From Candidatus Nomurabacteria bacterium (lineage in GTDB: Bacteria > Patescibacteriota > Dojkabacteria > SC72 > JAHDCA01): DNA of 64,000 nucleotides. The DNA lies in contig JACKFQ010000002.1 in NCBI GenBank assembly GCA_020632395.1, positions 83,662 through 147,661 of the forward strand, read 5' to 3'. Shown here piece by piece: positions 1 through 11,421 of the stretch (its first letter is position 1; each line of letters starts with the position of its first letter). The notes below the pieces were generated by a model. It did not search any database, was not told the DNA's origin, and saw only the letters and a list, made by a program, of their open reading frames with translations. The translations under genes were made by a program, and so were the position numbers.

Positions 1-122
1 CGTGGACCCCAATGATGATCGGTCGAACGCTCCGTATCAAATCCAAGTACCTCCGAGCCAGAACCTAGCAATCCAGCAGAGTATTTGAGTCCATGAAATT
101 CTGTTTCGATGAGAGTTTTCAC
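1..122 (-). CDS. N-terminal fragment of a protein running off the left edge; possible Pol-beta-superfamily nucleotidyltransferase (GS-x7-DTE motif)
   Basis: Minus-strand frame reads VKTLIETEFHGLKYSAGLLGSGSEVLGFDTERSTDHHWGP... from a GTG at 122 to beyond position 1. By eye this stretch is about 48% GC, versus under 30% for the adjacent array. Not in the ORF track because it is partial. Confidence 0.3.
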   Translation of the reverse strand, partial: MKTLIETEFHGLKYSAGLLGSGSEVLGFDTERSTDHHWGP

Positions 123-203
123 GACCTCTTTGTAAAATTGTTCACACAGTTGTTATCTTGGAATAAACTTTGTCAAATTTGAAGTATTTAGTTTTTTACT
201 AAC

Positions 204-641
204 CTATTCGAACTTTTTGTAGAACGTTTTTTGTAGATAGCAGGTAATTGCCATTCGACTTGCATCAAAATGAGGTGTCGGGAGATTTTTTGGATCTACC
301 CATAGCCACTCATCGCATTTTTCTGGTTCCATTATTTTCAGCTCACCGGAAAAGTCCTGGGCAAGTAAGGCGATCGAAACGTAGTGTAACCCTTCTTTGT
401 TGTAAGTTTCTAAGTTGTTGGTTACGGCTACCACTCGTGGATTTTTAATGTCCAAGTCGGTTTCTTCTTTAATTTCTCTAATCGCGCCATCTTCAAATGT
501 TTCGCCTGGCTCTAGATGCCCGCCTGGAATGGAATAGTATGGAGCATGGCTATTTTTTCTTTTGCCAATAAGGACTTTTCCGTCGTGATTTACAAGAATC
601 ACGCCTAATCCAACTCTTGGTATGTTTTTTTGTTTCGTCAT
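204..641 (-). CDS. NUDIX hydrolase
   Basis: Nudix box GGHLEPGETFEDGAIREIKEETDL (GX5EX7REUXEEXGU) in the 145 aa ORF. Confidence 0.85.
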   Translation of the reverse strand: MTKQKNIPRVGLGVILVNHDGKVLIGKRKNSHAPYYSIPGGHLEPGETFEDGAIREIKEETDLDIKNPRVVAVTNNLETYNKEGLHYVSIALLAQDFSGELKIMEPEKCDEWLWVDPKNLPTPHFDASRMAITCYLQKTFYKKFE

Positions 642-670
642 ATTTTAGAAAGGTTAGTTTAAAAATCTCG

Positions 671-701
671 CATAACGTTTCCCGATGAAGCGAAGTTTTG
701 C
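671..701. repeat. Cassette-junction conserved block 1, copy A (cATAACGTTtcccgATgaagCGAAGTTTTGC)
   Basis: One of seven related 30-35 bp elements, one in each intergenic region of the 0.2-5.6 kb array. They share the palindromic core ATAACGTTA followed by ATAT and GAAGTTTTGC. Confidence 0.7.
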
Positions 702-764
702 AAATTCCTTATGTAAATTAATATTTATTGGCAAAATTTGGACGGAGAAAACAATAAATTAATT

Positions 765-1142
765 TTAGCTCCGTAACTTTACTATAGTGTCCTTGAGTTT
801 CTTCATCAAATCGTCTTTATCGGTATATTCTATAAATTTATCAGTCACGATTTTTAGTGAGCTAGATGTTCTTTGTCCTGAATGATAAATACAAATAATT
901 GGACACTTTGACAAATCAGCCCACCCAAGCTCGATTCCCAGGCCTGTCGATGGATAAGAAACCTCCGCGATCATTAAGTCGCATGTCTTTATTATATCTC
1001 GCGTTACAAAATCACTAGCGTCTTCATAGGCTTCGTGCGGCAAGATAATTTCATGCTCCGTGTTCAATAAGCTTGAACGAATTGGTTCATATAGCTCTTT
1101 TTCAAAATCGTAATCGGTAGAGTGTCCAATATATATTTTCAT
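765..1142 (-). CDS. Nucleoside 2-deoxyribosyltransferase-like protein (flavodoxin-like fold)
   Basis: Motif STGLGIELGWA resembles the NDT catalytic-Glu motif (G-T-x-x-E-x-G-x-A). Size is 125 aa. Confidence 0.55.
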   Translation of the reverse strand: MKIYIGHSTDYDFEKELYEPIRSSLLNTEHEIILPHEAYEDASDFVTRDIIKTCDLMIAEVSYPSTGLGIELGWADLSKCPIICIYHSGQRTSSSLKIVTDKFIEYTDKDDLMKKLKDTIVKLRS

Positions 1143-1228
1143 AGAAGAGGGGATAAGATTAATTTATTGTTTTATGTAGTCGCATACACATTGTTAGATG
1201 ATGTGACATAATGGATATGGAGTCATTT

Positions 1229-1260
1229 CATATAACGTTAGCGTGTATGCAAAGTATGCC
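1229..1260. repeat. Cassette-junction block 1, copy B (catATAACGTTAGCGTGTATGCaaagtatgcc)
   Basis: Shares the ATATAACGTTAG core. Its stem portion GTGTATGC has an inverted partner GCATACAC at 1182-1189, followed by attGTTAGAT. Confidence 0.65.
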
Positions 1261-1401
1261 TAAGAACGGAACTGATATTATCTTCTCAAGATTTAAGCGA
1301 ATAGGCAAATTGGGGCGAGCCATTTTTAGAAATCAGTTGCACTGGACACGACAAAATGGCTCACAGCATAGCTGCTGTTGTGTGATGTAAAAAGAAAAGC
1401 G

Positions 1402-1794
1402 CTATATGCTCTTCATCTGAATCATTTTTGCCATTGCTATATATAAAACAAGACCTACCGAATAAATGATAATATAGGGGGCAATGGCAATCCAACGGTT
1501 AATGTAAAACAGATCAACATTTTGAAATGATCTTTCTATTGTCGAACCTACTACAAAAAAACTAAGAGCAACTAATGTATTGAGTAGAATTGTAAAATAC
1601 TGCCTACTGTCATCAACATGTATTAACTTTGTAATGAAGTAAGCTATTACGATATAAGCAATGGCAAAAATGCTCGTAATTGGCAATTGCAAAATCCATC
1701 TGCCATCTGAAGGAACATTTAATAACACATAAATTGTGTTTGCCACAAGAATTATCAAGAAACTAATGATAACTGAATTTGCAATTGTTTTCAT
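1402..1794 (-). CDS. Small integral membrane protein (about 4 TM helices), function unknown
   Basis: Hydrophobic segments fill most of the 130 aa ORF. Confidence 0.5.
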   Translation of the reverse strand: MKTIANSVIISFLIILVANTIYVLLNVPSDGRWILQLPITSIFAIAYIVIAYFITKLIHVDDSRQYFTILLNTLVALSFFVVGSTIERSFQNVDLFYINRWIAIAPYIIIYSVGLVLYIAMAKMIQMKSI

Positions 1795-1846
1795 ATGGGT
1801 TTGTTATTAAATAGTAGTAGCATTTTACCATTTCGTTTTGTTTCGT

Positions 1847-1874
1847 ACAACGTTATGGATATGCGGAGTTTTTC
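1847..1874. repeat. Cassette-junction block 1, copy C (acAACGTTATGGATATgCGgAGTTTTTC)
   Basis: Core AACGTTAT plus GGATAT and AGTTTTTC, matching the other junction copies. Confidence 0.6.
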
Positions 1875-1929
1875 TGGAACGTACTGGAGTGAAAGCGCTA
1901 GTGTACCCTGGAGTTTGTCCTTCAACCCG

Positions 1930-2448
1930 TTACTTCTCATCAAGATAAGAATTAATTGCTTCATCAATAATCGTAATATCTTTGATTTTTTTACTTTCAG
2001 GATTTTTACTAAATTCTTTAATCCATTCAATACAGTCATCAATATTTTCAACAACTAAATCAGAAAAGGTCAATAGAAAAGGATGAATCCAATCATCGAT
2101 TTTTGTACCATCAAAAACAATATTTGATCTTCTATGATGTGTATCTTTTGGAATTATTGAAATTACAGGTCTTTTGAAATATTTTGCAATTACCATTTCT
2201 TGAGCAGTTCCAGCTCCAAGTTTCTTCTTAGAATCAACGATGATAATATCTGCTGTTTTTACGAGATTAGAATCATGACCAACTAATTGCAAAGGTTTAG
2301 TTTCATCTTTCCATGCATCACCATCTGTAATTTCAACATTGGGAATTTTTGAAAGTTTTTCTTTGTATTCAACTTTCCAATCTTTCCAATTTTCTCTAAC
2401 ATCATCTCCTTTTGGTATTGAACCTAATAAAAAATTTTTAAGCGTCAT
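1930..2448 (-). CDS. Nucleoside 2-deoxyribosyltransferase-like protein, second paralog
   Basis: Motif KLGAGTAQEMVIAKY resembles the NDT active-site region. Size is 172 aa. The ORF-track entry 1791..2054 is an overlapping shadow ORF. Confidence 0.5.
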   Translation of the reverse strand: MTLKNFLLGSIPKGDDVRENWKDWKVEYKEKLSKIPNVEITDGDAWKDETKPLQLVGHDSNLVKTADIIIVDSKKKLGAGTAQEMVIAKYFKRPVISIIPKDTHHRRSNIVFDGTKIDDWIHPFLLTFSDLVVENIDDCIEWIKEFSKNPESKKIKDITIIDEAINSYLDEK

Positions 2449-2510
2449 ATATTTTGTGAAAATCCTTTATAAATTAAATCTTATTCTTCTAATGGTTGTA
2501 GGGTAAATTT

Positions 2511-2543
2511 CATTTAACGTTCCTGCGTATGCGATGTTTTTGC
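2511..2543. repeat. Cassette-junction block 1, copy D (catTTAACGTTcctgcgTATgCGatgTTTTTGC)
   Basis: Degenerate copy of the junction core. Confidence 0.55.
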
Positions 2544-2550
2544 GACCAAC

Positions 2551-2645
2551 GGGAGCAAAAATATGGGTGAAGCCCGAGCCGAGGGCTGAACCGTATATCC
2601 CTTGTTATACGCCCCGACGACAGAAAGGAGGAGAGCGCAGCGTGG
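2551..2645. repeat. Cassette-junction blocks 2-3, copy D (about 95 bp)
   Basis: About 90% identical by eye to 4401-4494. Contains the CGTATAtcccttgtTATACG hairpin and GGAGGAGAGCGCAGCGTGG. Confidence 0.75.
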
Positions 2646-2774
2646 CTTGAGTTCAAAAAATATTTTTCGTTCTGATTCATCAGAGAGGCTTTCGGTTATT
2701 TCTTATAAATTTGATTTTTTCGTTTTTCTTTTTCCAAGAGGGGTTAGGGATGAATTGGAAAAAATAAAAACTCC

Positions 2775-3440
2775 TTATTCTTTTTCATTAATAACAAACC
2801 ATTCTCCTTCACTAATCACTTCAATTTTGTTGTCAATAATCTTTAATGCAGAATCATCATCAAGTGCATAAATTGTTTTGCTTATTTCTTGACCAACTTT
2901 TTCTATATTTTCTCTTCTCATTTTTTTAAACCATTCAGAATTCAAATGTGGCAAGAAATAAAAATCTACAAAGTTTAAACCTTTTAATTCTTCAGTTTCA
3001 AGCATATCTTCTTCATAAATCACTTGGGATAATTTCAATGCTAAATCAGGATTAGTAACCATACTTCCAGCAGAAACACCAACATAAACTTTATCTTTAA
3101 ATAAATCAGACAACATTTCAGATAAACCTGATTTATTTAGCCATCTCATTAGATGATAAGTATTTCCTCCTTCAAAAAACAAAACATCAGCTCTTTCTAA
3201 ACTCGGTTTCCATATTTTTTCATCAACAGCTGAAATATCAGTAATTTCAATTGATTTGAAATTTTGTTTTTTCAAATTCACTAAATCAGTAATTAGCCAA
3301 TCTTTATCGCCCGATTCAACATTGCTTGCAGTAGGAATAAAAACAACTGTTGTTTCTTCTGGTTTCTTTCCAGTTAATTCAAACAAAGCATTGGCAATTG
3401 AATTGTTTGTTAGTCCGCTTGATGTTAATAGTAGTTTCAT
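2775..3440 (-). CDS. Peptidase E / S51-family dipeptidase
   Basis: LLLTSSG ... FIPTAS ... FFEGGNTYHLMRWL ... VYVGVSAGS match S51 peptidase motifs. Size is 221 aa. Confidence 0.8.
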   Translation of the reverse strand: MKLLLTSSGLTNNSIANALFELTGKKPEETTVVFIPTASNVESGDKDWLITDLVNLKKQNFKSIEITDISAVDEKIWKPSLERADVLFFEGGNTYHLMRWLNKSGLSEMLSDLFKDKVYVGVSAGSMVTNPDLALKLSQVIYEEDMLETEELKGLNFVDFYFLPHLNSEWFKKMRRENIEKVGQEISKTIYALDDDSALKIIDNKIEVISEGEWFVINEKE

Positions 3441-3604
3441 AATAGTAGGAGTAAAGAATTAAAATTTATAAATCAATCGTTTTCGGAACGAAGTGGAGAA
3501 AACACATTATTATCCCCCTCTTTTATTTTAGAAAAAATCAAATTTATTCCCTTTTTAGAAAGCCTATTTTCATTATTCATCTTAGAAAAATATTTTTTGA
3601 ATTT

Positions 3605-3638
3605 CACATAACGTATCCGAATATGAGAAGTTTTTTGC
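3605..3638. repeat. Cassette-junction block 1, copy E (cacATAACGTATCCGaATATgaGAAGTTTTTTGC)
   Basis: Junction core. A possible partner arm CGGATAatcagtGTTATAC lies at 3785-3803, just before the stop codon of the upstream gene. Confidence 0.6.
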
Positions 3639-3813
3639 CGGATTTCCCAGTATTTATGTACAGTTTAGCACATTCGTTCGACATTTGAATATGCTTTAAT
3701 TGATCGCCATTCGTAGGCAAAAAATTTGGATGGAATGAAAAAGACAAGTCCTTAAATTATTCAAAAGTGTCTTTTTCATGGAACCGGATAATCAGTGTTA
3801 TACGAGAGTTGAA

Positions 3814-4341
3814 TTAAGCGGCTCCTAGCAGTTTCAACATTTTCTCAGACCAATCAGTATTGCCCTTTGTTATTTCCTCCTTGAAAAATTTTATCATCAG
3901 CTGTTTTGGCTCATCCGATATTGCACAGTGCTTAATTTCTGGCCAAAATTCACGATACCATAATCCGATATTATCATGTTTTAAGTCGCAAGCACCGCCA
4001 TTTGGATCAGGTTCAATAAACAAAATCCTGTCTACGTGATTTGTAACAGAAGCTCCCAAGCATTGAATACAAGGTTCAAGCGTACTGTATAGAGAGACAA
4101 TTTTTGAATTATCCTTACGAACTTCCGCCAGCTCTTTGCCGTACTTAATTATTAGAGAATTTTCGGCATGATTCACAAAGGATTTTTGTTTATTGATTTC
4201 GTTGCCAGCGACGCCAAGCGTTTTATTATTGATAGCCAAAACAGCCCCCACAGGATAGTTCCCAAGCTTGAAAGTTTCTCTAGCAATACTGATGGCCGAC
4301 TCCAAGCATTGTTTATCGAATTGTGTTATTTCTTGCACCAT
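3814..4341 (-). CDS. CMP/dCMP-type (cytidine/deoxycytidylate family) zinc deaminase
   Basis: HAE (VNHAENSL) and PCxxC (LEPCIQCLG) zinc-binding motifs. Size is 175 aa. Confidence 0.75.
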   Translation of the reverse strand: MVQEITQFDKQCLESAISIARETFKLGNYPVGAVLAINNKTLGVAGNEINKQKSFVNHAENSLIIKYGKELAEVRKDNSKIVSLYSTLEPCIQCLGASVTNHVDRILFIEPDPNGGACDLKHDNIGLWYREFWPEIKHCAISDEPKQLMIKFFKEEITKGNTDWSEKMLKLLGAA

Positions 4342-4360
4342 ACAGAGCTTAATTCAATTT

Positions 4361-4391
4361 CATATAACGTTAGGGATATACGAAGTTTTGC
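4361..4391. repeat. Cassette-junction block 1, copy F (catATAACGTTAGGGATATACGAAGTTTTGC), the best-preserved copy
   Basis: ATATAAC-GTTA-GGGATATACG is the reverse complement of CGTATATCCC-TT-GTTATAC at 4442-4460, with a 2-nt versus 4-nt bulge. Confidence 0.75.
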
Positions 4392-4400
4392 GGAGTGAAA

Positions 4401-4494
4401 CGGAGCAAAATTTGGGTGAGGGGCGAGCCGAGCACCGAACCGTATATCCCTTGTTATACGCCCCGACGACCAAAGGGAGGAGAGCGCAGCGTGG
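4401..4494. repeat. Cassette-junction blocks 2-3, copy F
   Basis: Near-identical to 2551-2645. Contains the right arm of the attC-like inverted repeat. Confidence 0.75.
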
Positions 4495-4516
4495 TTCGTG
4501 GCGATAGCCGAGAAAG

Positions 4517-4553
4517 TCAGAAGTCGGCTTTTTTCTTTTTTATGAGCGCACAC
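4517..4553. repeat. Left arm of an imperfect inverted repeat flanking the methyltransferase gene
   Basis: TCAGAAGTCGGCTTTT ... TGAGCGCACAC are the reverse complements of AAAAGCCGACTTCTGA and GTGTGCGCTCA at 5425-5464. This arm abuts the stop codon. Confidence 0.7.
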
Positions 4554-5381
4554 CTATTTTTTCTTAACAATTATCATCATATGTCCACTTAAATCAACAA
4601 TTATTGGATCGGTGCAAATTTTGTTATGAATGGCTAACCAATTTTTCCATGCTTTTGGATATTTCTTTGCAAATTTATTTGTCGCTTCAGGATTTACATT
4701 TAAGCCTTCAAGACCCACTTTCTCAAGAATTTGCACATCTTTTTTGGTAAAAATGGACTCAAGCTCTGATGAGGTAAAATAATGACAATAGCCATCTCCT
4801 CTCCATTTATAATCTTCACCATCAGATACCAGTCCCTCGAAATGCTTTTTGTAAACTACTTCTTGTGGCCAACCAAGAGGAGTGGCTAGGAGTACCCCAT
4901 ACTTGCTCATTACTGAAACAAAAATTAAAGCACCCTTTTTTGCGACTCTAATTAATTCGTCAATTGCTTTTAGTCTTTCGGATTCTGGGCTGACATGAGA
5001 GAGTGGTCCGCCCAAGCACAATACTACATCAAAAGAATTATTTTCAAATTCAGATAAGTCTGTAATAGACCCCTCTACAATATCTTTAATTTTTGTTTGT
5101 ACCTTTGCTTTTTTAATTTGTTCCCTAGCAAGTTCTAGGTGTTCTGTGACCAAATCCAGAAGAACAACATCATATCCCATTTTTGCCAATTCAATTGAGT
5201 ATCTTCCGGGACCACCACCTGCGTCAAGAATTACTCCAGATTTTGGAAGATATTTTTTTAGGAATTTTATTGATGTGTCAAATTCTATTTTATGAAAGGG
5301 GTCTTGTGCTAATCTATTCCATTCATAAAGAGCATCTTTTTTGTAATTCTTTTTGGTTAGTTTTGTAGTCTTGTTTGCCAT
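4554..5381 (-). CDS. Class I SAM-dependent methyltransferase
   Basis: Motif I VILDAGGGPGRYSIELAK with the acidic residue at VVLLDL. Size is 275 aa. Confidence 0.8.
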   Translation of the reverse strand: MANKTTKLTKKNYKKDALYEWNRLAQDPFHKIEFDTSIKFLKKYLPKSGVILDAGGGPGRYSIELAKMGYDVVLLDLVTEHLELAREQIKKAKVQTKIKDIVEGSITDLSEFENNSFDVVLCLGGPLSHVSPESERLKAIDELIRVAKKGALIFVSVMSKYGVLLATPLGWPQEVVYKKHFEGLVSDGEDYKWRGDGYCHYFTSSELESIFTKKDVQILEKVGLEGLNVNPEATNKFAKKYPKAWKNWLAIHNKICTDPIIVDLSGHMMIIVKKK

Positions 5382-5424
5382 AATAATATTGTAAAGTATA
5401 AATGATTTATAATTGTTGTGTTAA

Positions 5425-5464
5425 GTGTGCGCTCATTCCTTCTTAATTAAAAGCCGACTTCTGA
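5425..5464. repeat. Right arm of the inverted repeat flanking the methyltransferase gene
   Basis: GTGTGCGCTCA ... AAAAGCCGACTTCTGA. A 16-nt and an 11-nt perfect reverse-complement match to 4517-4553, with different spacers. Confidence 0.7.
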
Positions 5465-5466
5465 TT

Positions 5467-5500
5467 GCGTATAACTCGTTACTATACGAAGTGTTTTCGC
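5467..5500. repeat. Cassette-junction block 1, copy G (attI-equivalent position next to the recombinase)
   Basis: gcGTATAACtcGTTActATACGAAGTgTTTTcGC lies between the first array gene and the divergent tyrosine recombinase gene. Confidence 0.6.
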
Positions 5501-5590
5501 AATTTGTACAGAAATGCATATACTATGCGAACAGTTTCTGACAAAATAACTCTAAACTAATTATCAATATCATCTCATAAAAAACAACAA

Positions 5591-6403
5591 ATGAAAAAAG
5601 AAATTACAGCAACTGTACGAGAATTAAAAATTCGCAATTACAGTTCTAAAACAATAAAAAGCTACACTAGTGGAATTCAAAAATACTTTCGGTTCAAGAA
5701 AAATAATTTCCAACAGCTAGATATCCACAATATACAAAACTTTTTACTCTCCTGTTCAGATAAAGGACTGTCTGCTAAGACAAGAGATCTATATTTGAAT
5801 TCAATTAAATTCTATTACCACAACGTCATTAAAACTTCAAAAAAGGTAGACATCAAATCTGCAAAACAAAATAAAAGTCTCCCTGTTATATTGAATCGCA
5901 AGGAAATCACAAAGTTGAGTGAAGTCATAAATAACCCCAAACACAAATTAATCATCTTGCTAGCATATGGAGCAGGATTAAGAGTTAGCGAAGTCGTCAA
6001 CTTAAAGGTCAAGGACGTAGATATTGATAATCTCACACTCCATATTAAGAAAGCCAAGGGGAAAAAGGATAGAATTACTATTATCCCAGAAAAAATTAAG
6101 GATGATCTGAAATTGATAATTAATTCAAGAGATCAAAACGAATATGTTTTTACAAGTGAACGAGGAGGAAATCTTACAACTCGTACTGCACAAAAGATTT
6201 TTACTAATGCTCTGAAAAAAGCAGGAATTAAGAAGGAGACGACATTTCATTCACTACGCCATAGCTTTGCAACTCACTTACTAGAAAACGGAGTTGATAT
6301 CAGATATGTTCAAGAATTACTTGGTCATCAAAATATTAGAACCACACAAAGATATACTCAAGTTACAAATCCGAAACTAAAAAACATTAAAAGTCCCCTC
6401 TGA
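5591..6403 (+). CDS. Tyrosine site-specific recombinase (XerC/XerD/phage-integrase family, 270 aa)
   Basis: Box I LRVSEV, box II HSLRHSFAT, catalytic Tyr in LGHQNIRTTQRYTQV. About 91 residues separate the box I Arg from the box II His, matching the Xer spacing, so no IntI-type insertion. Confidence 0.9.
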   Translation: MKKEITATVRELKIRNYSSKTIKSYTSGIQKYFRFKKNNFQQLDIHNIQNFLLSCSDKGLSAKTRDLYLNSIKFYYHNVIKTSKKVDIKSAKQNKSLPVILNRKEITKLSEVINNPKHKLIILLAYGAGLRVSEVVNLKVKDVDIDNLTLHIKKAKGKKDRITIIPEKIKDDLKLIINSRDQNEYVFTSERGGNLTTRTAQKIFTNALKKAGIKKETTFHSLRHSFATHLLENGVDIRYVQELLGHQNIRTTQRYTQVTNPKLKNIKSPL

Positions 6404-6561
6404 AAAGAAACATTTTCTAAGACTCGAACCCAATTATTAGAGTTATATAGGCATTCTTGCTTATGGAGTGATATTTACCTTACTTTGCGTCATTTCTACG
6501 AACTGCAAGATTAGTCCGCTGTATAAGGCTTTTAAAATGCTGAAGAAAAAGCTGACCTAAC

Positions 6562-6711
6562 TGGTCGGGGAGACAGGACCATCTCGGCAAACATGCCTCG
6601 ATGTATGATGCAGAATAATTCTACTGCATCATAGGTCCCTGCAGTAGGTTCAAGTCCAAATACACCATCCATACAGAGTAAACGACCACCTAACGGTGGT
6701 CATTTACTCTG
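6562..6711. repeat. 150 bp module at the 3' end of tRNA-Pro(CGG); duplicated at 22862-23012
   Basis: Nearly identical to the copy at 22862-23012. Begins with GTCGGGGAGACAGGAC, a 16-nt direct repeat of the tRNA 3' end. Contains the hairpins TGATGCAG/CTGCATCA and GACCACC-TAAC-GGTGGTC. Confidence 0.8.
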
Positions 6712-6785
6712 TCGGGGAGACAGGACTTGAACCTGCGACCTCTGCAACCCGAATGCAGCGTTCTAGCCATCTGAACTACTCCCCG
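6712..6785 (-). tRNA. tRNA-Pro, anticodon CGG
   Basis: Manual cloverleaf: acceptor CGGGGAG/CTCCCCG, D-stem GTTC/GAAC, anticodon arm CTGCA-TTCGGGT-TGCAG, T-arm GCAGG-TTCAAGT-CCTGT, discriminator A. Length 74 nt with no encoded CCA. Confidence 0.85.
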
Positions 6786-6875
6786 AGTACAATATTTCTC
6801 TTAGGTATATCTGGCAAATGAGCCTTATAATAACAACTTTACGAACGTAGTACTATATACGAATTCCACTATCCA

Positions 6876-7208
6876 TCAAGACTTATTTGTTTTTTGTGCC
6901 ACTTTTTCGGGTAGAAGGTTATGGATCGCAAGAAATGGCAATAATGCAAATGACCCTACGAATAGAACCGCTAAAGCAAAAGGATATCTTCGCTTGCTCT
7001 TTTCACTATTTAGGATCCAAAAACAAGATATTGTCGAGAAAACACCTATATCAATGAACATAATGCGAGCGAAAGAGCTTTCCTCCAAAACGGATCTCAT
7101 CGGTATAAAATCGTTCATTAGTTGTGGGTCAAATATGGCATAGATGACCAACAATACCCATACGACGATGAATGTTATCCCTAGTCGTCTCTTCTCAGAT
7201 GAATTCAT
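6876..7208 (-). CDS. Small membrane protein (2-3 TM helices)
   Basis: Hydrophobic 110 aa ORF. Confidence 0.4.
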   Translation of the reverse strand: MNSSEKRRLGITFIVVWVLLVIYAIFDPQLMNDFIPMRSVLEESSFARIMFIDIGVFSTISCFWILNSEKSKRRYPFALAVLFVGSFALLPFLAIHNLLPEKVAQKTNKS

Positions 7209-7297
7209 GATCTTCTTTGTAACTAATAATTAAAATGTTCAACCAGAAAACAGATCAAGCCTATAGTTGCTAAGCTGCTTTACTTTTATAAACCTCT

Positions 7298-8368
7298 CTA
7301 ACTATAAGTTAGCTGGGTAGACAACTGCTTCACCATCTCCACTACAACTGCAGGAGCCACTATACTATATGATTCTACACCATTGTCATCGATAAAAGTC
7401 CACTTCGTATCCTTCCGTACTACCTTACCATCTACTACCTCATAAGATGCACGAGGTGTTAATTCGTAATCATCAAGTATATCAGCTGCGATCTCCACCG
7501 GAACAGAATTTCTCACAAAGATCTTTGGAACGCCATGCAGGTCAAAGATCTTTCGGATCAACTCATCGTCCATCTCTATCCTTTCCCGGATAGTTTCTAT
7601 GCCAAGAGAATCCCCCTCTTTCTCAACCATTCGCTCAGAGCTACATTCAGGGTTATCACAAATCAGGTAAAACTCATCCTTATCAGGGTCATAGCCAGCT
7701 TCCTTTGTGGGGAAAGCCCACAGATTTCTTGATGTATGACATTTGGGGCAGATCCTCCTGTATTTGATGCGTGTATCAATTACTGATTCGGGAACATCCA
7801 GTAGCATGAAAAGATCAGGGTCATCGCGATAATTGATCAGCTCTCTAAAATACAGTGAGTATGTCACCTGATCCATATTTCTAGGAAACCCATCAATGAA
7901 CAGATTTCTCCTACCGGCCTTTTCGATCTCGCGTTTAACGAGAGCGAGAATGAACTCGGTAGGTAGAAGATGTGCGGTAGAGCGATTCATAAAGGCCTCT
8001 ATTGCATCATTTATGGATATAAAACCTCTATAATTAGCTTTCAGATACTCTTCCAGAGCTTGCCTCTCTACTGGATCGTTCTTGATCTCATCAGCAGCCC
8101 TTACGATATCACCTACAGAGAGGTGTTTGATCATATCAGAGCCAAAGATCTCAGCTAAGAGCTTAGTGAAAGTTCCTTTACCTGCTTGTTTCTTTCCAAG
8201 AATGTAGACTATGAACGTATTATCTCTCATATAATCTTTCAGATCGGCAATCTCTTTACCGATCTTATCTTGAAAATATACTTGTCTTTCTGCCGGATCT
8301 GACAGATCATAACTATCACGACCTGATCTAGTCTTTGTGTTTGGCATAGGAAAATCTAACCCCTTCAT
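7298..8368 (-). CDS. Atypical adenylate-kinase-family protein with N- and C-terminal extensions and a zinc lid
   Basis: P-loop GKKQAGKGT, HLSVGDIVRAA, FIDGFPRN, and a zinc lid CPKCH ... CDNPEC. At 356 aa it is longer than the operon adk at 229 aa. Confidence 0.55.
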   Translation of the reverse strand: MKGLDFPMPNTKTRSGRDSYDLSDPAERQVYFQDKIGKEIADLKDYMRDNTFIVYILGKKQAGKGTFTKLLAEIFGSDMIKHLSVGDIVRAADEIKNDPVERQALEEYLKANYRGFISINDAIEAFMNRSTAHLLPTEFILALVKREIEKAGRRNLFIDGFPRNMDQVTYSLYFRELINYRDDPDLFMLLDVPESVIDTRIKYRRICPKCHTSRNLWAFPTKEAGYDPDKDEFYLICDNPECSSERMVEKEGDSLGIETIRERIEMDDELIRKIFDLHGVPKIFVRNSVPVEIAADILDDYELTPRASYEVVDGKVVRKDTKWTFIDDNGVESYSIVAPAVVVEMVKQLSTQLTYS

Positions 8369-8386: not shown

Positions 8387-9502
8387 TTATTTACAATTTG
8401 CGATTATCCATTCTTTTATTAGGTCCTTGAATTTCATTAGATCCTCAAAGTCTACCCATTCATCCTTAATATGCGCTGATGAGCATGTTGGCATAGTCAT
8501 AAGCACTGGGATACCCTTTGCACTAAAAAATGCTGCGTCCGAACCACCATGCGATCTGATTATTTCGGGTTGGATACCATGATCATGGGTAATCTCCTGC
8601 CAGATCTTAGTCGGACCTGATCTTGGATCATTATTAACCGCACTACTCCAATGTATAGTGGTTAATAGTAGGTTACGCGATGTAAATTCTTTGGTGACAA
8701 GCTCTTGTATAATTAACGGATCAAACTCGGCAGGTATCCTTATATCAAGAAACATTTCGGCACTATCCGGCACCATATTTATAGCAGATCCACCTTTGAT
8801 CATTCCAATATTTACAGTAGGTATCCAATCATTCGAAGCTGTAGGTGTTCCCCACCTAGTAATAAATTCGTCATGTAGCCAACTGTATGCTTCGGTAAGT
8901 TGATTTATAGCATTTTTGCCCAGCCATGGTCTTGCTCCATGTGCTGCCACTCCCGTTGCAGTACATTTCAGATGCCACAACCCTTTCTCAGCTACACAGA
9001 TCGACCAGTTTGGTCCCGAATCAGGTAGAAATACAACTCCGGGTCGATACCCAACATCATTCAAGAGATACTGCACACCATTATCACTACCGACCTCTTC
9101 ATCAGATGTGAACATAAGTGCGACATCGAGTTTATTTCCTTCTGAAATGAGTTCCTTATATGCATATATCATTGCGACATCTACCCCTTTCATATCACTA
9201 GAACCCCTTGCATAGATCCTCCCATCCTTCTCATAAGGTTCAAATTGATCACTATCCAAGGGAGGTACCACATCAACATGGCCACTCAACATGATCTTCG
9301 GTGTAAGGGTTTTTCGTTGTGAGATAACAATTGAAGGGATATCATTCTTTTCGTACTTTTCAATATTCAGATCAAGATCACTTACTAACTGTTCGACAAA
9401 TTTAATCGCTTCATGGAGTTTTGGAATGTTGTCTGATGTTGACCCGATCTTTAAGAATGATAACAGAGCTTCTTTCATGGTTAAGAGGATATCATATATC
9501 AA
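8387..9502 (-). CDS. M20-family metallopeptidase (ArgE/DapE-like deacylase)
   Basis: SGHVDVVPP and GRIYARGSSDMKG motifs. Size is 371 aa. Confidence 0.75.
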   Translation of the reverse strand: MIYDILLTMKEALLSFLKIGSTSDNIPKLHEAIKFVEQLVSDLDLNIEKYEKNDIPSIVISQRKTLTPKIMLSGHVDVVPPLDSDQFEPYEKDGRIYARGSSDMKGVDVAMIYAYKELISEGNKLDVALMFTSDEEVGSDNGVQYLLNDVGYRPGVVFLPDSGPNWSICVAEKGLWHLKCTATGVAAHGARPWLGKNAINQLTEAYSWLHDEFITRWGTPTASNDWIPTVNIGMIKGGSAINMVPDSAEMFLDIRIPAEFDPLIIQELVTKEFTSRNLLLTTIHWSSAVNNDPRSGPTKIWQEITHDHGIQPEIIRSHGGSDAAFFSAKGIPVLMTMPTCSSAHIKDEWVDFEDLMKFKDLIKEWIIANCK

Positions 9503-9518
9503 ACATTTCTGTATACTT

Positions 9519-9947
9519 CTATCCAGTCTTTACAACATTTGCAATATCCCCGACGCACATCCAAGCGGATGAGATCCCGTAACCCTTCTTATCGATCTCA
9601 AACGGTTTGATCTTCCTCGGTTCTTTCAGGAATACAAGAATACAATATCTTTTTTTCTCATAGTACTCATTATATGTCGTAGTTTTCATACTGATCTCGT
9701 CACCATGGTCATGTGCTATCTTCTCGAACAGCTCTTTGTTTAGATTTTCATACTGTTTTACTCTCAAGACTTCTGCACATGCAGTAACAGGATCACCCGA
9801 ATATTTAAAAAACACCCGGTCACCCTTTTTTATCTTTCCCCAAGGAGCTATACGATTTACATACCATCGGGATTCGATCCTTTTCTTTCTCGAAAGTATA
9901 TCCTCGATCAAACCGGAAGACCTTTTCATGATCGCCACATGATCCAT
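9519..9947 (-). CDS. ASCH/PUA-like domain protein
   Basis: Small beta-rich protein of 142 aa with an ASCH-like N-terminal region. Assignment is tentative. Confidence 0.4.
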   Translation of the reverse strand: MDHVAIMKRSSGLIEDILSRKKRIESRWYVNRIAPWGKIKKGDRVFFKYSGDPVTACAEVLRVKQYENLNKELFEKIAHDHGDEISMKTTTYNEYYEKKRYCILVFLKEPRKIKPFEIDKKGYGISSAWMCVGDIANVVKTG

Positions 9948-10191
9948 AGTTTTGATGAGTTAAAAATTTTATATATAAAAAAACCGAACTTTTGTTACTA
10001 GATCTTGATGCTGGATCGTGATACTAGGTTCTAATACTTGGGCTTGATACTGGGATCTTCTTGCGAGTGAGTTTTTACTTAATGTACTACCTCAAGATCC
10101 CCTCTTACTTAAATGCCTTCGTGAGTACTTTCTGGTATGTCCTATTCGATACTTTAAGAGAGTCCTGCAGAGAGGATCCCACCAATACTTA

Positions 10192-11421
10192 CTAAGATCC
10201 CCTGCTCTTATACCATTCTTTGAGAGTATCAAAGGAGATCCTCTGCCCAAACTCCAATGCACCAAGTTCAAAAAGCTTTAAAGCGATGAAATAGCTAATG
10301 ATCAACTGCAATATCAGAGCAACTATCGATGCAACAATTTCGAATGAAGATAAGACTCCTATACCATTCCTAAAGAGCAATATCAAAGGAGAAGAAATCG
10401 GTACATAACTTAAAATTAGAGCAAGGGTTCCATCAGGATCCGCTATCAAGAAACCTATCATATACAAAGGAAGTATCGCCAACATTATAAATACAGAAGA
10501 AAAACTCTGCGATTCTTTGAGGGTTGGCATTGCCGCTCCCACACCAACCATGATATTAGCTAGTATCACAAAGCCAAGAAATGCATATAAAAATGAAGGT
10601 ATGGCCTGTACCGGGTCGATACTTATCTGACTTACATCTATAGGTAATGAGGCATCCGAGATCTTTAACCCCATAACCCCTAAAGTTATCAGAAGTGTGA
10701 TCTGAGTCACAACAATACCTATCAAGCCTAGCAATTTCCCTTTTATAAGATCATCTGAGCGAATAGAGGTGAGTATGATCTCCATCATTCTCGACTCTTT
10801 TTCTTCTGCCACACTTGCCAGGAGATAACTCGTGCCAGATGTTATCATCAAAAAATATATTACAAATGCTCCGATCGGAACTATGTAATCTTCAACTTTT
10901 TCCTCTACCTTTTCGCCATTTTCATATACATTCAGCTCTACTCCGGGAGGTGTTTCTAAGATCAGATACTGCGTCTGGTCAAGGGTCGAAAGCACAGAGC
11001 TACGTAATAAAGCTACTGCTGTGCTATTGTACTGATTATTCTCTATCACATTGAGATTGATCCTGTAGATCTCGATCTTTCCTTTGCCTTCCAGAAGCGA
11101 CTGAGGATAATAAAAGAATACTGAGGCACCACCATCCAAAACGATCTCTTTCCCCTCCTCGATCGTAGAGACGAACTCCACACCTTCTCCTTGTACTGCT
11201 TCGGTATCAATTAGACCAGTTTCATCAAGTACCAATAATACATTATCCTTGTCGAATTTCTGGATCTCTTCGAATTTCTGCTGTGCCGTTTCTGCTGAGA
11301 ACGTATTTAGTAACGAGACAATAACTATCAAAATTGGCAATAACAGGGTAGAAAGCCAAAAACTCTTCTTCCTTACTACAGTTATGTATTCTCTTTTAGC
11401 GACAAGTAGTAGTTTGTTCAT
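10192..11421 (-). CDS. ABC-2 type exporter permease
   Basis: N-terminal TM helix, a large extracytoplasmic loop and a C-terminal cluster of TM helices. Immediately downstream of an ABC ATPase. Confidence 0.65.
   Translation of the reverse strand: MNKLLLVAKREYITVVRKKSFWLSTLLLPILIVIVSLLNTFSAETAQQKFEEIQKFDKDNVLLVLDETGLIDTEAVQGEGVEFVSTIEEGKEIVLDGGASVFFYYPQSLLEGKGKIEIYRINLNVIENNQYNSTAVALLRSSVLSTLDQTQYLILETPPGVELNVYENGEKVEEKVEDYIVPIGAFVIYFLMITSGTSYLLASVAEEKESRMMEIILTSIRSDDLIKGKLLGLIGIVVTQITLLITLGVMGLKISDASLPIDVSQISIDPVQAIPSFLYAFLGFVILANIMVGVGAAMPTLKESQSFSSVFIMLAILPLYMIGFLIADPDGTLALILSYVPISSPLILLFRNGIGVLSSFEIVASIVALILQLIISYFIALKLFELGALEFGQRISFDTLKEWYKSRGS

Follow-up and report, generated by a model that had tools for sequence, protein, structure and literature searches.

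The first 6,403 nucleotides (nt) of a 64,000-nt stretch of DNA from a Candidatus Nomurabacteria bacterium (GenBank assembly GCA_020632395.1, contig JACKFQ010000002.1, forward-strand positions 83,662 to 147,661; the whole stretch is referred to here as the window) most probably constitute an integron-like gene-capture platform of a bacterium of the candidate phyla radiation (CPR, or Patescibacteria), in which a structured site that we call site F ends a one-gene cassette. The evidence lies in a fold that site F shares with its relatives and whose base pairs covary, in the strand and position bias of the sites relative to a tyrosine recombinase gene, in cassettes that hold one open reading frame (ORF) each, and in differences between cassettes and between strains that start at an AAC triplet. 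A preliminary description of this DNA, made from its letters, had proposed an attC-like cassette junction, and the fold, the covariation and the boundaries support that proposal, for an attC-like site rather than for the attC of a canonical integron.

Site F folds into a bulged hairpin

Site F comprises a 5' arm, ATATAAC-GTTA-GGGATATACG (4362-4382), and a 3' arm, CGTATATCCC-TT-GTTATAC (4441-4459), with 58 nt between them; its parts are listed in Table 1. Both arms had been recognized in the preliminary description, although with coordinates that were off by one base and with a centre of 60 nt. The same description had called the match perfect except for 4 nt facing 2 nt. The arms do pair, but the outermost pair of the R stem is an A.C mismatch, and in the register of the related sites A4372 is paired with T4451, so that GTT faces a single T in a 3 x 1 internal loop. 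Folding had been put forward as a check, and a stable hairpin with an asymmetric bulge does form: folded as single-stranded DNA, the + strand reaches -18.8 kcal/mol (z = -2.45 relative to shuffles) with the full outer stem and the inner hairpins, and the - strand reaches -14.6 kcal/mol (z = -1.3).

Among the sites of the window, F is the best preserved and is intact. Junctions D and F have an 88-nt repeat in common (89% identity). A conserved 3' extension (...GAGAGCGCAGCGTGG..., with the motif GCGCAGC) lies outside the hairpin and is found at 4460-4494 and 2611-2645 of the window and in two related loci (L018, 147-200; L070, about 8410-8470; L numbers denote loci throughout). A scan of window positions 1-8000 against Rfam, which holds no attC family, returned tRNA only at E <= 1, and site F had no match in the phage database.

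Related sites conserve structure, strand and position

Relatives of site F were sought with a strict scan for arm complementarity that required a 7-nt R box and a 10-nt L box, and that replaced an earlier hairpin scan (G.T pairs allowed, 8/9 matches) swamped by background. On the recombinase-sense strand upstream of the gene, a 5' spacer of 4 nt with a 3' spacer of 1 nt (4,1) was found 22 times and the combination (3,1) 8 times, with the mirror image on the other strand; downstream of recombinase genes, neither strand reached three matches of (4,1) or (3,1) geometry. Thirty-six sites have the layout xxxTAAC^GTTN (the caret marks the boundary at AAC), L' (about 11 nt), stem 1 (AAGTT...AATTT), TTTGGG(T/C)GA, stem 2 (often with the loop GAGCCGA), GAACC, L'', T and GTTAxxx. 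The outer boxes had been likened to the integron core and inverse-core consensus RYYYAAC/GTTRRRY, and they fit it, AAC and GTT being invariant in 38 of 38 aligned sites; the pairs seen include GCCTAAC/GTTAGGC, GTCTAAC/GTTAGAC and GTATAAC/GTTATAC, site F having ATATAAC/GTTATAC.

In the alignment of these 38 sites, 91% of structure cells are paired, as compared with 68.5% in shuffles and 29-47% in slid controls, and 24 of the 32 pairs are changed on both sides. The covariation score is 0.559 versus 0.155, and none of 500 shuffles reaches 0.559. The 11-bp L helix, for the pairing of which the sites were pre-selected, is 97.4% paired with 10 of 11 pairs changed on both sides; stem 1, which had no part in site selection, shows 94.7% pairing and has changes on both sides in 6 of its 9 pairs. 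The equation of the inner stem with L''/L' stands: it is pairing rather than sequence that is conserved, both across the alignment and in the compensatory changes between two loci described below.

We built a covariance model from the alignment, junctions B and E being outside the seed. In the window it matches site F (100 bits, E about 1e-21), D (85 bits), B, E and, weakly, A, on the + strand and inside the array only, and it has no match in the remaining 58 kb. Run on both strands of 82 related CPR loci (1.08 Mb), it returned 152 matches at E <= 0.01, all of them on the recombinase-sense strand and 151 upstream of the gene. Sites are carried by 57 loci, the window included, at up to 10 per 10 kb, and homologues of site F at 72-86% identity occur in many distant genomes. 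The sites are spaced at a median of 793 bp (interquartile range 565-1148). When the longest ORF was taken from each of 123 intervals between sites, it read away from the recombinase (- strand) in 113, lay on the + strand in 6 and was absent in 4; the median protein length was 188 amino acids (aa), and 113 of the 123 have a site at the 3' side. Well-formed seed sites are 86-146 nt long and model matches 31-229 nt (median 101), so that the length first given for site F, about 100 bp and within the attC size range, fits; attC sites are about 57-141 bp long. The likening of the unpaired bases to attC extrahelical bases held in part: an asymmetric loop is present, but it is a single 3-4 x 1 loop on the R'/L' arm, and there are no two extrahelical bases on R''/L''.

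Thirty-six of 37 sites are more stable in silico as + strand DNA (mean -22.5 versus -19.2 kcal/mol, p = 1.7e-7), and a G.T pair in stem 1 is conserved in 36 of 38. GCGAAGC, GCGTAGC, GCGCAGC and GTGAAAC are frequent in the loops and in the 3' extension; we take such motifs for DNA mini-hairpins of the d(GC-GNA-GC) class, which are unusually stable, and their presence would be in keeping with a fold of DNA and not of RNA.

Cassette and strain differences begin at the AAC triplet

The preliminary description had expected the arms to coincide with points at which gene content differs between strains, with a crossover at G^TT, which is AA^C on the bottom strand. Comparisons of related loci agree with both expectations at the resolution of the AAC triplet, not of the phosphate. 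One cassette, internal in L018 and first in L070, is shared with 91% nucleotide identity over 986 nt (92% at the amino acid level). The identity runs through ...GAATTTCAT(C/A)TAAC and stops at TAAC^; past this point L018 continues into another site's GTTTGCGTG... and L070 into the primary site TAGTTTTTATGCGAAG. The cassette's own site differs between L018 and L070 by compensatory changes in the arms (GGGATATACG/CGTATATCCC versus GGGATAAAAG/CTTTTATCCC) and stem 2 shows such changes too. A second case, a cassette common to L049 and L074, has a boundary of the same kind. At the level of strains, two metagenome contigs found by an exact-pattern scan (L089, L090) are 99.9% identical over 6036 nt rightwards from the primary site; the identity ends at ACAAC^TCGTTAC, and on its left side the two are unrelated. 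Where one locus has several otherwise identical sites, the 4 nt on the 5' side of AAC are all that distinguishes them. Among species-level relatives neither flank of the recombinase gene is syntenic, so these gave no contrast of a conserved with a variable flank.

A compact recombinase gene adjoins an attI-like site

In the window, seven ORFs, all on the - strand at 204-5381, are followed by the + strand recombinase gene (5591-6403) and then by a tRNA-Pro gene. The recombinase matches Phage_integrase at 6e-45. The best of its solved relatives is the Vibrio cholerae integron integrase (2a3v, E = 8e-45), then Pyrococcus abyssi XerA (4a8e, 1e-43), with which the alignment is full length; Escherichia coli XerD is a much weaker relative (4.5e-19). 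The catalytic motifs GLRVSE, HSLRHS, LGHQN and RYTQV align with those of IntI4 and XerA, the box I Arg, H-x-x-R, box II His and Tyr all being conserved. More than 8000 homologues of 270-275 aa, at 55-85% identity, are present in metagenome-assembled genomes of CPR/Patescibacteria, and the plasmid database yielded no more than generic XerA-like genes (about 40% identity). The archaeal integron integrases described by Ghaly et al. 2022 (PMC9668308) have the IntI domain.

About 118 nt upstream of the recombinase ATG lies an attI-like site, and a primary site is found in the same place in nearly all of 80 related loci retrieved from species-representative genomes. Its consensus is xxxTAAC^T(C/G)GTT(T/A)(T/C)TAT(A/G)CGAA (in short form, xxxTAAC^TCGTTACTATACGAAG), with a second box, TATACGAA, nearer the recombinase gene; the copy of the core in the window is at 5467-5500. 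Conservation begins at AAC, and left of AAC the loci are unrelated. The 5' arm of site F (ATATAAC^GTTAGGGATATACGAAGTTTTGC) resembles the primary site. Many contigs stop 100-320 nt upstream of the recombinase gene, as is to be expected of assemblies that run into a hypervariable or repeat-bearing region; contigs with an identical recombinase or close relatives are <7 kb and are mostly broken in this same interval.

Proposed mechanism and comparison with known systems

By analogy with integrons and with the integration of CTX-phi, the + strand may become single-stranded, upon which the site would fold. From the outside inwards, the fold has an R stem of 7 bp (xxxTAAC with GTTAxxx), an internal loop of 3-4 x 1, an L stem of 10-11 bp and two hairpins joined by the TTTGGG(T/C)GA linker. 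Protomers of the recombinase would bind the R and L boxes of the folded strand. Strand exchange at the invariant AAC/GTT with another folded site would then excise a cassette as a circle, and exchange at AAC/GTT with the duplex primary site would insert one. On the same analogy the recombinase would be the catalyst, the + strand the reactive strand and a single-stranded form the intermediate, with the exact phosphate of cleavage placed likewise; in site F the crossover would fall at AAC 4366-4368.

The system is like class 1 integrons and the superintegron of V. cholerae, with its VCR sites, in that a recombinase gene adjoins the primary site and is oriented divergently from an array whose cassettes mostly have one ORF, and in that each cassette ends in an imperfect palindrome with outer boxes ...AAC/GTT..., some of them literally GCCTAAC/GTTAGGC. 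The inner L boxes keep structure rather than sequence, there is an asymmetric unpaired region, the length (about 86-146 nt for seed sites) is comparable, the crossover lies at an AAC/GTT triplet, and the bottom strand folds better. The system differs from integrons in that its recombinase is about 50 residues shorter than VchIntIA and is without the IntI-specific domain that contacts extrahelical bases. Its sites have one 3-4 x 1 loop (GTTN versus T) on R'/L' and no bulge inside L, whereas the canonical T12'' and G20'' are on R''/L''. The centre of the site is a conserved three-way junction of two hairpins, with the conserved linker TTTGGG(T/C)GA and conserved loops, rather than a free variable loop, and a conserved 3' extension of about 35 nt follows. 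The cassettes often have leaders of 90-170 nt, and the hosts are CPR bacteria. The sites appear to work like integron attC sites, but neither an IntI domain in the recombinase nor the canonical pattern of extrahelical bases in the sites was found.

There are likenesses to Xer-dependent systems as well. In CTX-phi attP(+) and other integrative mobile elements exploiting Xer (IMEXs), which use XerCD at dif, a folded single strand forms an Xer-type duplex site with an unpaired central bulge, an Xer-family enzyme recombines it with a chromosomal site, and tandem arrays can build up at the target. IMEXs, however, are multi-gene phages or islands that have no recombinase of their own and integrate at the terminus dif, whereas the CPR units are single genes in uniform orientation beside a recombinase gene that looks dedicated and that, in general, does not lie at a skew switch. 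As regards the single-recombinase Xer systems (archaeal XerA/dif, XerS/difSL, XerH/difH), the CPR protein passes the NCBIfam XerA model and aligns over its full length with P. abyssi XerA, and XerS and XerH genes adjoin their sites, as the CPR recombinase gene adjoins its presumed site; those systems have one dif and no cassette array, whereas in the CPR loci the primary site is followed by as many as 10 structured sites per 10 kb. The pdif modules of Acinetobacter are also small gene modules bounded by Xer-type sites and shuffled between replicons, but pdif sites are plain 28-bp duplex sites that alternate in orientation on plasmids, without folded 100-nt sites, an adjacent recombinase gene or a unidirectional array.

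Several observations weigh against an integron-like platform. The recombinase passes the cutoff of NCBIfam NF040815 recomb_XerA_Arch (232.8 bits, cutoff 220) and fails that of the integron-integrase model TIGR02249 (212.8 versus 265, in two stretches). Where canonical integrases need the IntI-specific domain to read the extrahelical bases of attC, the CPR recombinase lacks it, residues 174-197 facing IntI4 178-244 (22 aa versus 65, about 43 residues missing). The recombinase is present in very many CPR genomes, which fits a housekeeping role too. The seed sites were chosen for arm complementarity, a choice that in part predetermines the R/L pairing percentages but not the covariation, the pairing of stem 1 or where the matches fall. 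By pair counts the strand preference is moderate (91% versus 87%). Finally, among the sites of the window, A and C are degenerate, as are the outer stem in E and the L stem in D, and much of the window's array may for this reason be frozen and no longer mobile.

Alternative explanations

The most serious alternative, which we consider improbable, is that the recombinase is the cell's single chromosome-dimer resolvase (as with XerS/difSL and XerH/difH), that the site at about -118 is its dif, and that the cassettes are IMEX-like elements exploiting Xer via a folded single-stranded site, as CTX phage does. This explanation overlaps with the gene-capture platform, from which it differs in the primary function of the recombinase and its site, and the two are not exclusive. 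The XerA match favours it, as do the spread of the homologues across the CPR, the Xer-like CATAA-type arms of the primary site and the finding of no second recombinase paralogue in the 64-kb window. In addition, Smyshlyaev et al. 2021 (PMC8138268) place the Xer-related recombinases of candidate phyla in a 'Cand' subgroup, for which no function is described and which is discussed beside class-specific recombinases that may replace Xer. The chromosomal context, however, speaks against a resolvase: a terminus-type GC skew was seen in 2 of 39 loci only, the right flank being positive in 14 and clearly so (at least +0.10) in about 5, in a test of GC skew and ORF orientation that is not decisive, with flanks that are short and, on the left, confounded by long arrays. 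In the window the skew is negative throughout the locus, without a switch. Each unit, moreover, consists of one ORF and a structured site belonging to it, and all units face the same way, which is the organization of integrons and not of phage or island IMEXs.

It is very improbable that the sites are repetitive extragenic palindromes or RNA structures (terminators or 3'-untranslated-region stabilizers) with no role in recombination. They are indeed intergenic, hairpin-forming and repeated, and some cassettes have other inverted repeats around the ORF. Elements of this kind would not account for the confinement of all 152 matches to one strand, 151 of them upstream of one recombinase gene, with none in the remainder of the window, nor for the fact that cassette and strain homology ends at the site's AAC triplet. 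Relative to the cassette mRNAs, the strand that folds more stably is the antisense one, no site of the window matches Rfam, and a terminator scan gave counts not above chance, with none at any junction hairpin; one terminator-like site, at 1394-1414, flanks site B at the stop of the ORF at 1402-1794. A chance inverted repeat in AT-rich intergenic DNA, for which it might be said that short inverted repeats are common in the region (138 pairs listed), is effectively excluded by covariation far above that of shuffles and by the model matches, site F scoring as it does and having homologues in many distant genomes.

Implications for the CPR

For the CPR as a whole, the balance tips slightly towards an integron-type platform for gene capture that is ancient, that may be a sister or an ancestor of integrons, and that couples a compact Xer/XerA-like recombinase without an IntI domain to single-stranded three-way-junction sites with AAC/GTT core boxes. 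If so, structure-specific cassette recombination would be independent of the IntI insertion and would be a major route of gene flux in reduced CPR genomes. What defines integrons is an integrase whose additional domain, found in no other recombinase, recognizes the extrahelical bases of folded attC; integron logic with a recombinase that is without this domain, and that lies between IntI and archaeal XerA in similarity, would make an Xer origin of integrons directly testable. The small genomes of CPR bacteria are thought to hold few mobile elements, and the platform suggests a general way in which these bacteria gain genes and their strains come to differ. It may also explain the frequent breaks of CPR assemblies beside the recombinase gene, and it offers a compact pair of recombinase and structured site for biochemistry. 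No description of integrons or cassette arrays in CPR/Patescibacteria was found in the full-text literature searched, although one outside that literature is possible, and IntegronFinder 2.0 makes no mention of them.

The array of the window

At least seven one-gene cassettes of 560-1107 bp each, read away from the recombinase gene, make up the array (Table 1). It probably continues past the left edge of the window because window 1-195 is 87.7% identical to L024 8469-8663, just left of a site there.

Table 1 Features of the integron-like region (window coordinates)
Feature	Position	Strand	Description
Site F	4362-4459	+ (bottom strand relative to cassette ORFs)	Putative structured cassette recombination site; 100.3 bits
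Site F, outer box R'	4362-4368	+	ATATAAC
Site F, bulge	4369-4371	+	GTT
Site F, L'	4372-4382	+	
Site F, stem 1	4383-4391 with 4405-4413	+	Loop GGAGTGAAACGGA
Site F, linker	4414-4419	+	GGGTGA
Site F, stem 2	4420-4424 with 4432-4436	+	Loop GAGCCGA
Site F, GAAC	4437-4440	+	
Site F, L''	4441-4451	+	
Site F, single T opposite bulge	4452	+	
Site F, outer box R''	4453-4459	+	GTTATAC
3' extension of site F	4460-4494	+	GCCCCGACGAC...GAGAGCGCAGCGTGG; conserved; GCGCAGC mini-hairpin motif
Site A	670-760	+	19.6 bits, E = 0.03 (weak); AAC 674-676
Orphan 3'-arm-like piece	1180-1205	+	CGCATACACATTGTTAGATGATGTGA; in leader of next cassette
Site B	1230-1383 (model 1224-1389)	+	46.6 bits, E = 8e-9; AAC 1234-1236
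Site C	1845-1933	+	Degenerate half site; AAC 1849-1851
Site D	2512-2610	+	Closest paralogue of F; 84.9 bits; AAC 2516-2518
Site E	3606-3803 (model 3600-3809)	+	Long version, about 200 nt; 41.8 bits, E = 1e-7; AAC 3610-3612
attI-like site	5467-5531	+	GCGTATAAC^TCGTTACTATACGAAGTGTTTTCGC; AAC 5473-5475; second box TATGCGAA 5524-5531
Tyrosine recombinase	5591-6403	+	270 aa; Xer/XerA-like; divergent from cassettes
Cassette 1 ORF	4554-5381	-	S-adenosylmethionine (SAM)-dependent methyltransferase; cassette about 4369-5475
Cassette 2 ORF	3814-4341	-	Cytidine/deoxycytidylate-type deaminase; cassette about 3613-4368
Cassette 3 ORF	2775-3440	-	Peptidase family S51; cassette about 2519-3612; homologues are cassettes in L024, L017
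Cassette 4 ORF	1930-2448	-	172 aa; no family match
Cassette 5 ORF	1402-1794	-	130 aa; probably membrane protein
Cassette 6 ORF	765-1142	-	125 aa; weak match to nucleoside 2-deoxyribosyltransferase
Cassette 7 ORF	204-641	-	NUDIX hydrolase

All junctions of the window read ...AAC-GTT..., followed by a TAT-containing box and then by AGTTTT. The 3' arm of site D is identical to that of F; its L' has diverged (CTGCGTATGCG), and pairing in the L stem is partial, G.T pairs included. The arms of site E are ACATAAC-GT-ATCCGAATATGAG on the 5' side and CGGATAATCAG-T-GTTATAC on the 3' side, and its stems 1 and 2 are long and well formed. The partner arm first noted for this junction, at 3785-3803, is the arm that the covariance model uses, though the outer stem is weak and is missing from the minimum-energy fold. 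Site A has a clear 5' arm, GCATAAC-GTTT-CCCGATGAAGCG, and a stem 1 of AAGTTTTGC with GCAAAATTT, and no convincing 3' arm; site C has a typical 5' arm, GTACAAC-GTT-ATGGATATGCG, and no 3' half, and it was not found by the covariance model.

Site B has the 5' arm ATATAAC-GTT-AGCGTGTATGC and a degenerate 3' arm of the family type at about 1365-1383. The preliminary description had paired 1182-1200 with 1232-1250; this repeat is present and forms in the minimum-energy fold, but the partner arm was misassigned. As a site of the family type the repeat was rejected, its topology being inverted (the R boxes adjoin the loop) and the model placing the 3' arm elsewhere. The orphan piece that contains its left arm (L''-TT-GTTAGAT-GATGTGA) lies 30 nt left of the crossover of site B and is complementary to the L' arm of B, which it captures in the minimum-energy fold; it may be the scar of an aberrant or secondary-site recombination.

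Three cassette ORFs are bracketed by long inverted repeats of their own (748-772/1149-1173, 2652-2721/3531-3601 and 4517-4554/5425-5464); in one pair 25 nt match at 88%, in another a repeat of about 100 nt contains two perfect 17-mers, and in another there are a perfect 16-mer and a 12-mer. Because these repeats bracket the ORFs, pairing of leader with trailer could loop out the cassette ORF. The leader of the S51 cassette, from crossover to ATG (3438-3612), is a module that is 75-85% conserved in distant genomes, often beside the primary site (L064 3879-4054, L079 2540-2676, L019 5094-5253, L039 5569-5723), and the trailer of the same cassette contains an inverted copy of it (2646-2756). In L039 the module reads TTGACA-17 nt-ATAAAT, and cassettes may on this ground carry their own promoter. 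A promoter and terminator scan of the window gave counts not above those of shuffles and was not used as evidence; nor were the suggestive promoter-like hexamers in the attI region (5481-5510, - strand; 5496-5524, + strand) and in leaders.

Several of the cassette products act on nucleotides or nucleic acids (the NUDIX, cytidine-type deaminase, deoxyribosyltransferase-like and SAM methyltransferase proteins). The methyltransferase matches PADLOC mad2 (3e-16) and the NUDIX protein PDC-S07 (1e-13), and products of this kind could serve nucleotide salvage or phage defence.

Variants in related loci

Pairs of different species (L032/L035 at 9869-10831, L005/L006, L023/L030/L034 and others) share 85-98% nucleotide identity from the primary site (about -120) to the recombinase stop only, both flanks having diverged past detection. 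Either an unusually strong constraint acts on the module of recombinase and site, or the module itself is exchanged between genomes. In a Gracilibacteria locus (L028, 3808-9817), a short site variant of about 72 nt, xxxxAAC^GTGGCGCGACTTATCCGAAG...GGATAATCGCTGTTAGAC, is present in five near-identical copies that differ only in the 4 nt before AAC; these alternate with longer sites preceded by GCGATGTTGGCTAAC, and some of the intervals appear to be gene-less. The short variant is also found in L054 (6423-6516 and 9709-9802). In L006, L028, L031 and L068, small hairpins, for example TTAGCCAAC-GAGCGTAGCGAT-GTTGGCTAAC, lie immediately next to the primary site.

A 1.39-Mb contig labelled Candidatus Altiarchaeales archaeon (L047, MCBF01000001.1) has a recombinase of 60% identity, the same primary site and one model match, so that either this is a mislabelled or chimeric bin or the system reaches Archaea. 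L074 (1506-1617 and about 2225-2260) represents a lineage variant with the invariant AAC replaced, the site reading ACATAAT^GCCC... and the primary site ACAC^GATGCCC..., and in this locus site and primary site seem to co-vary.

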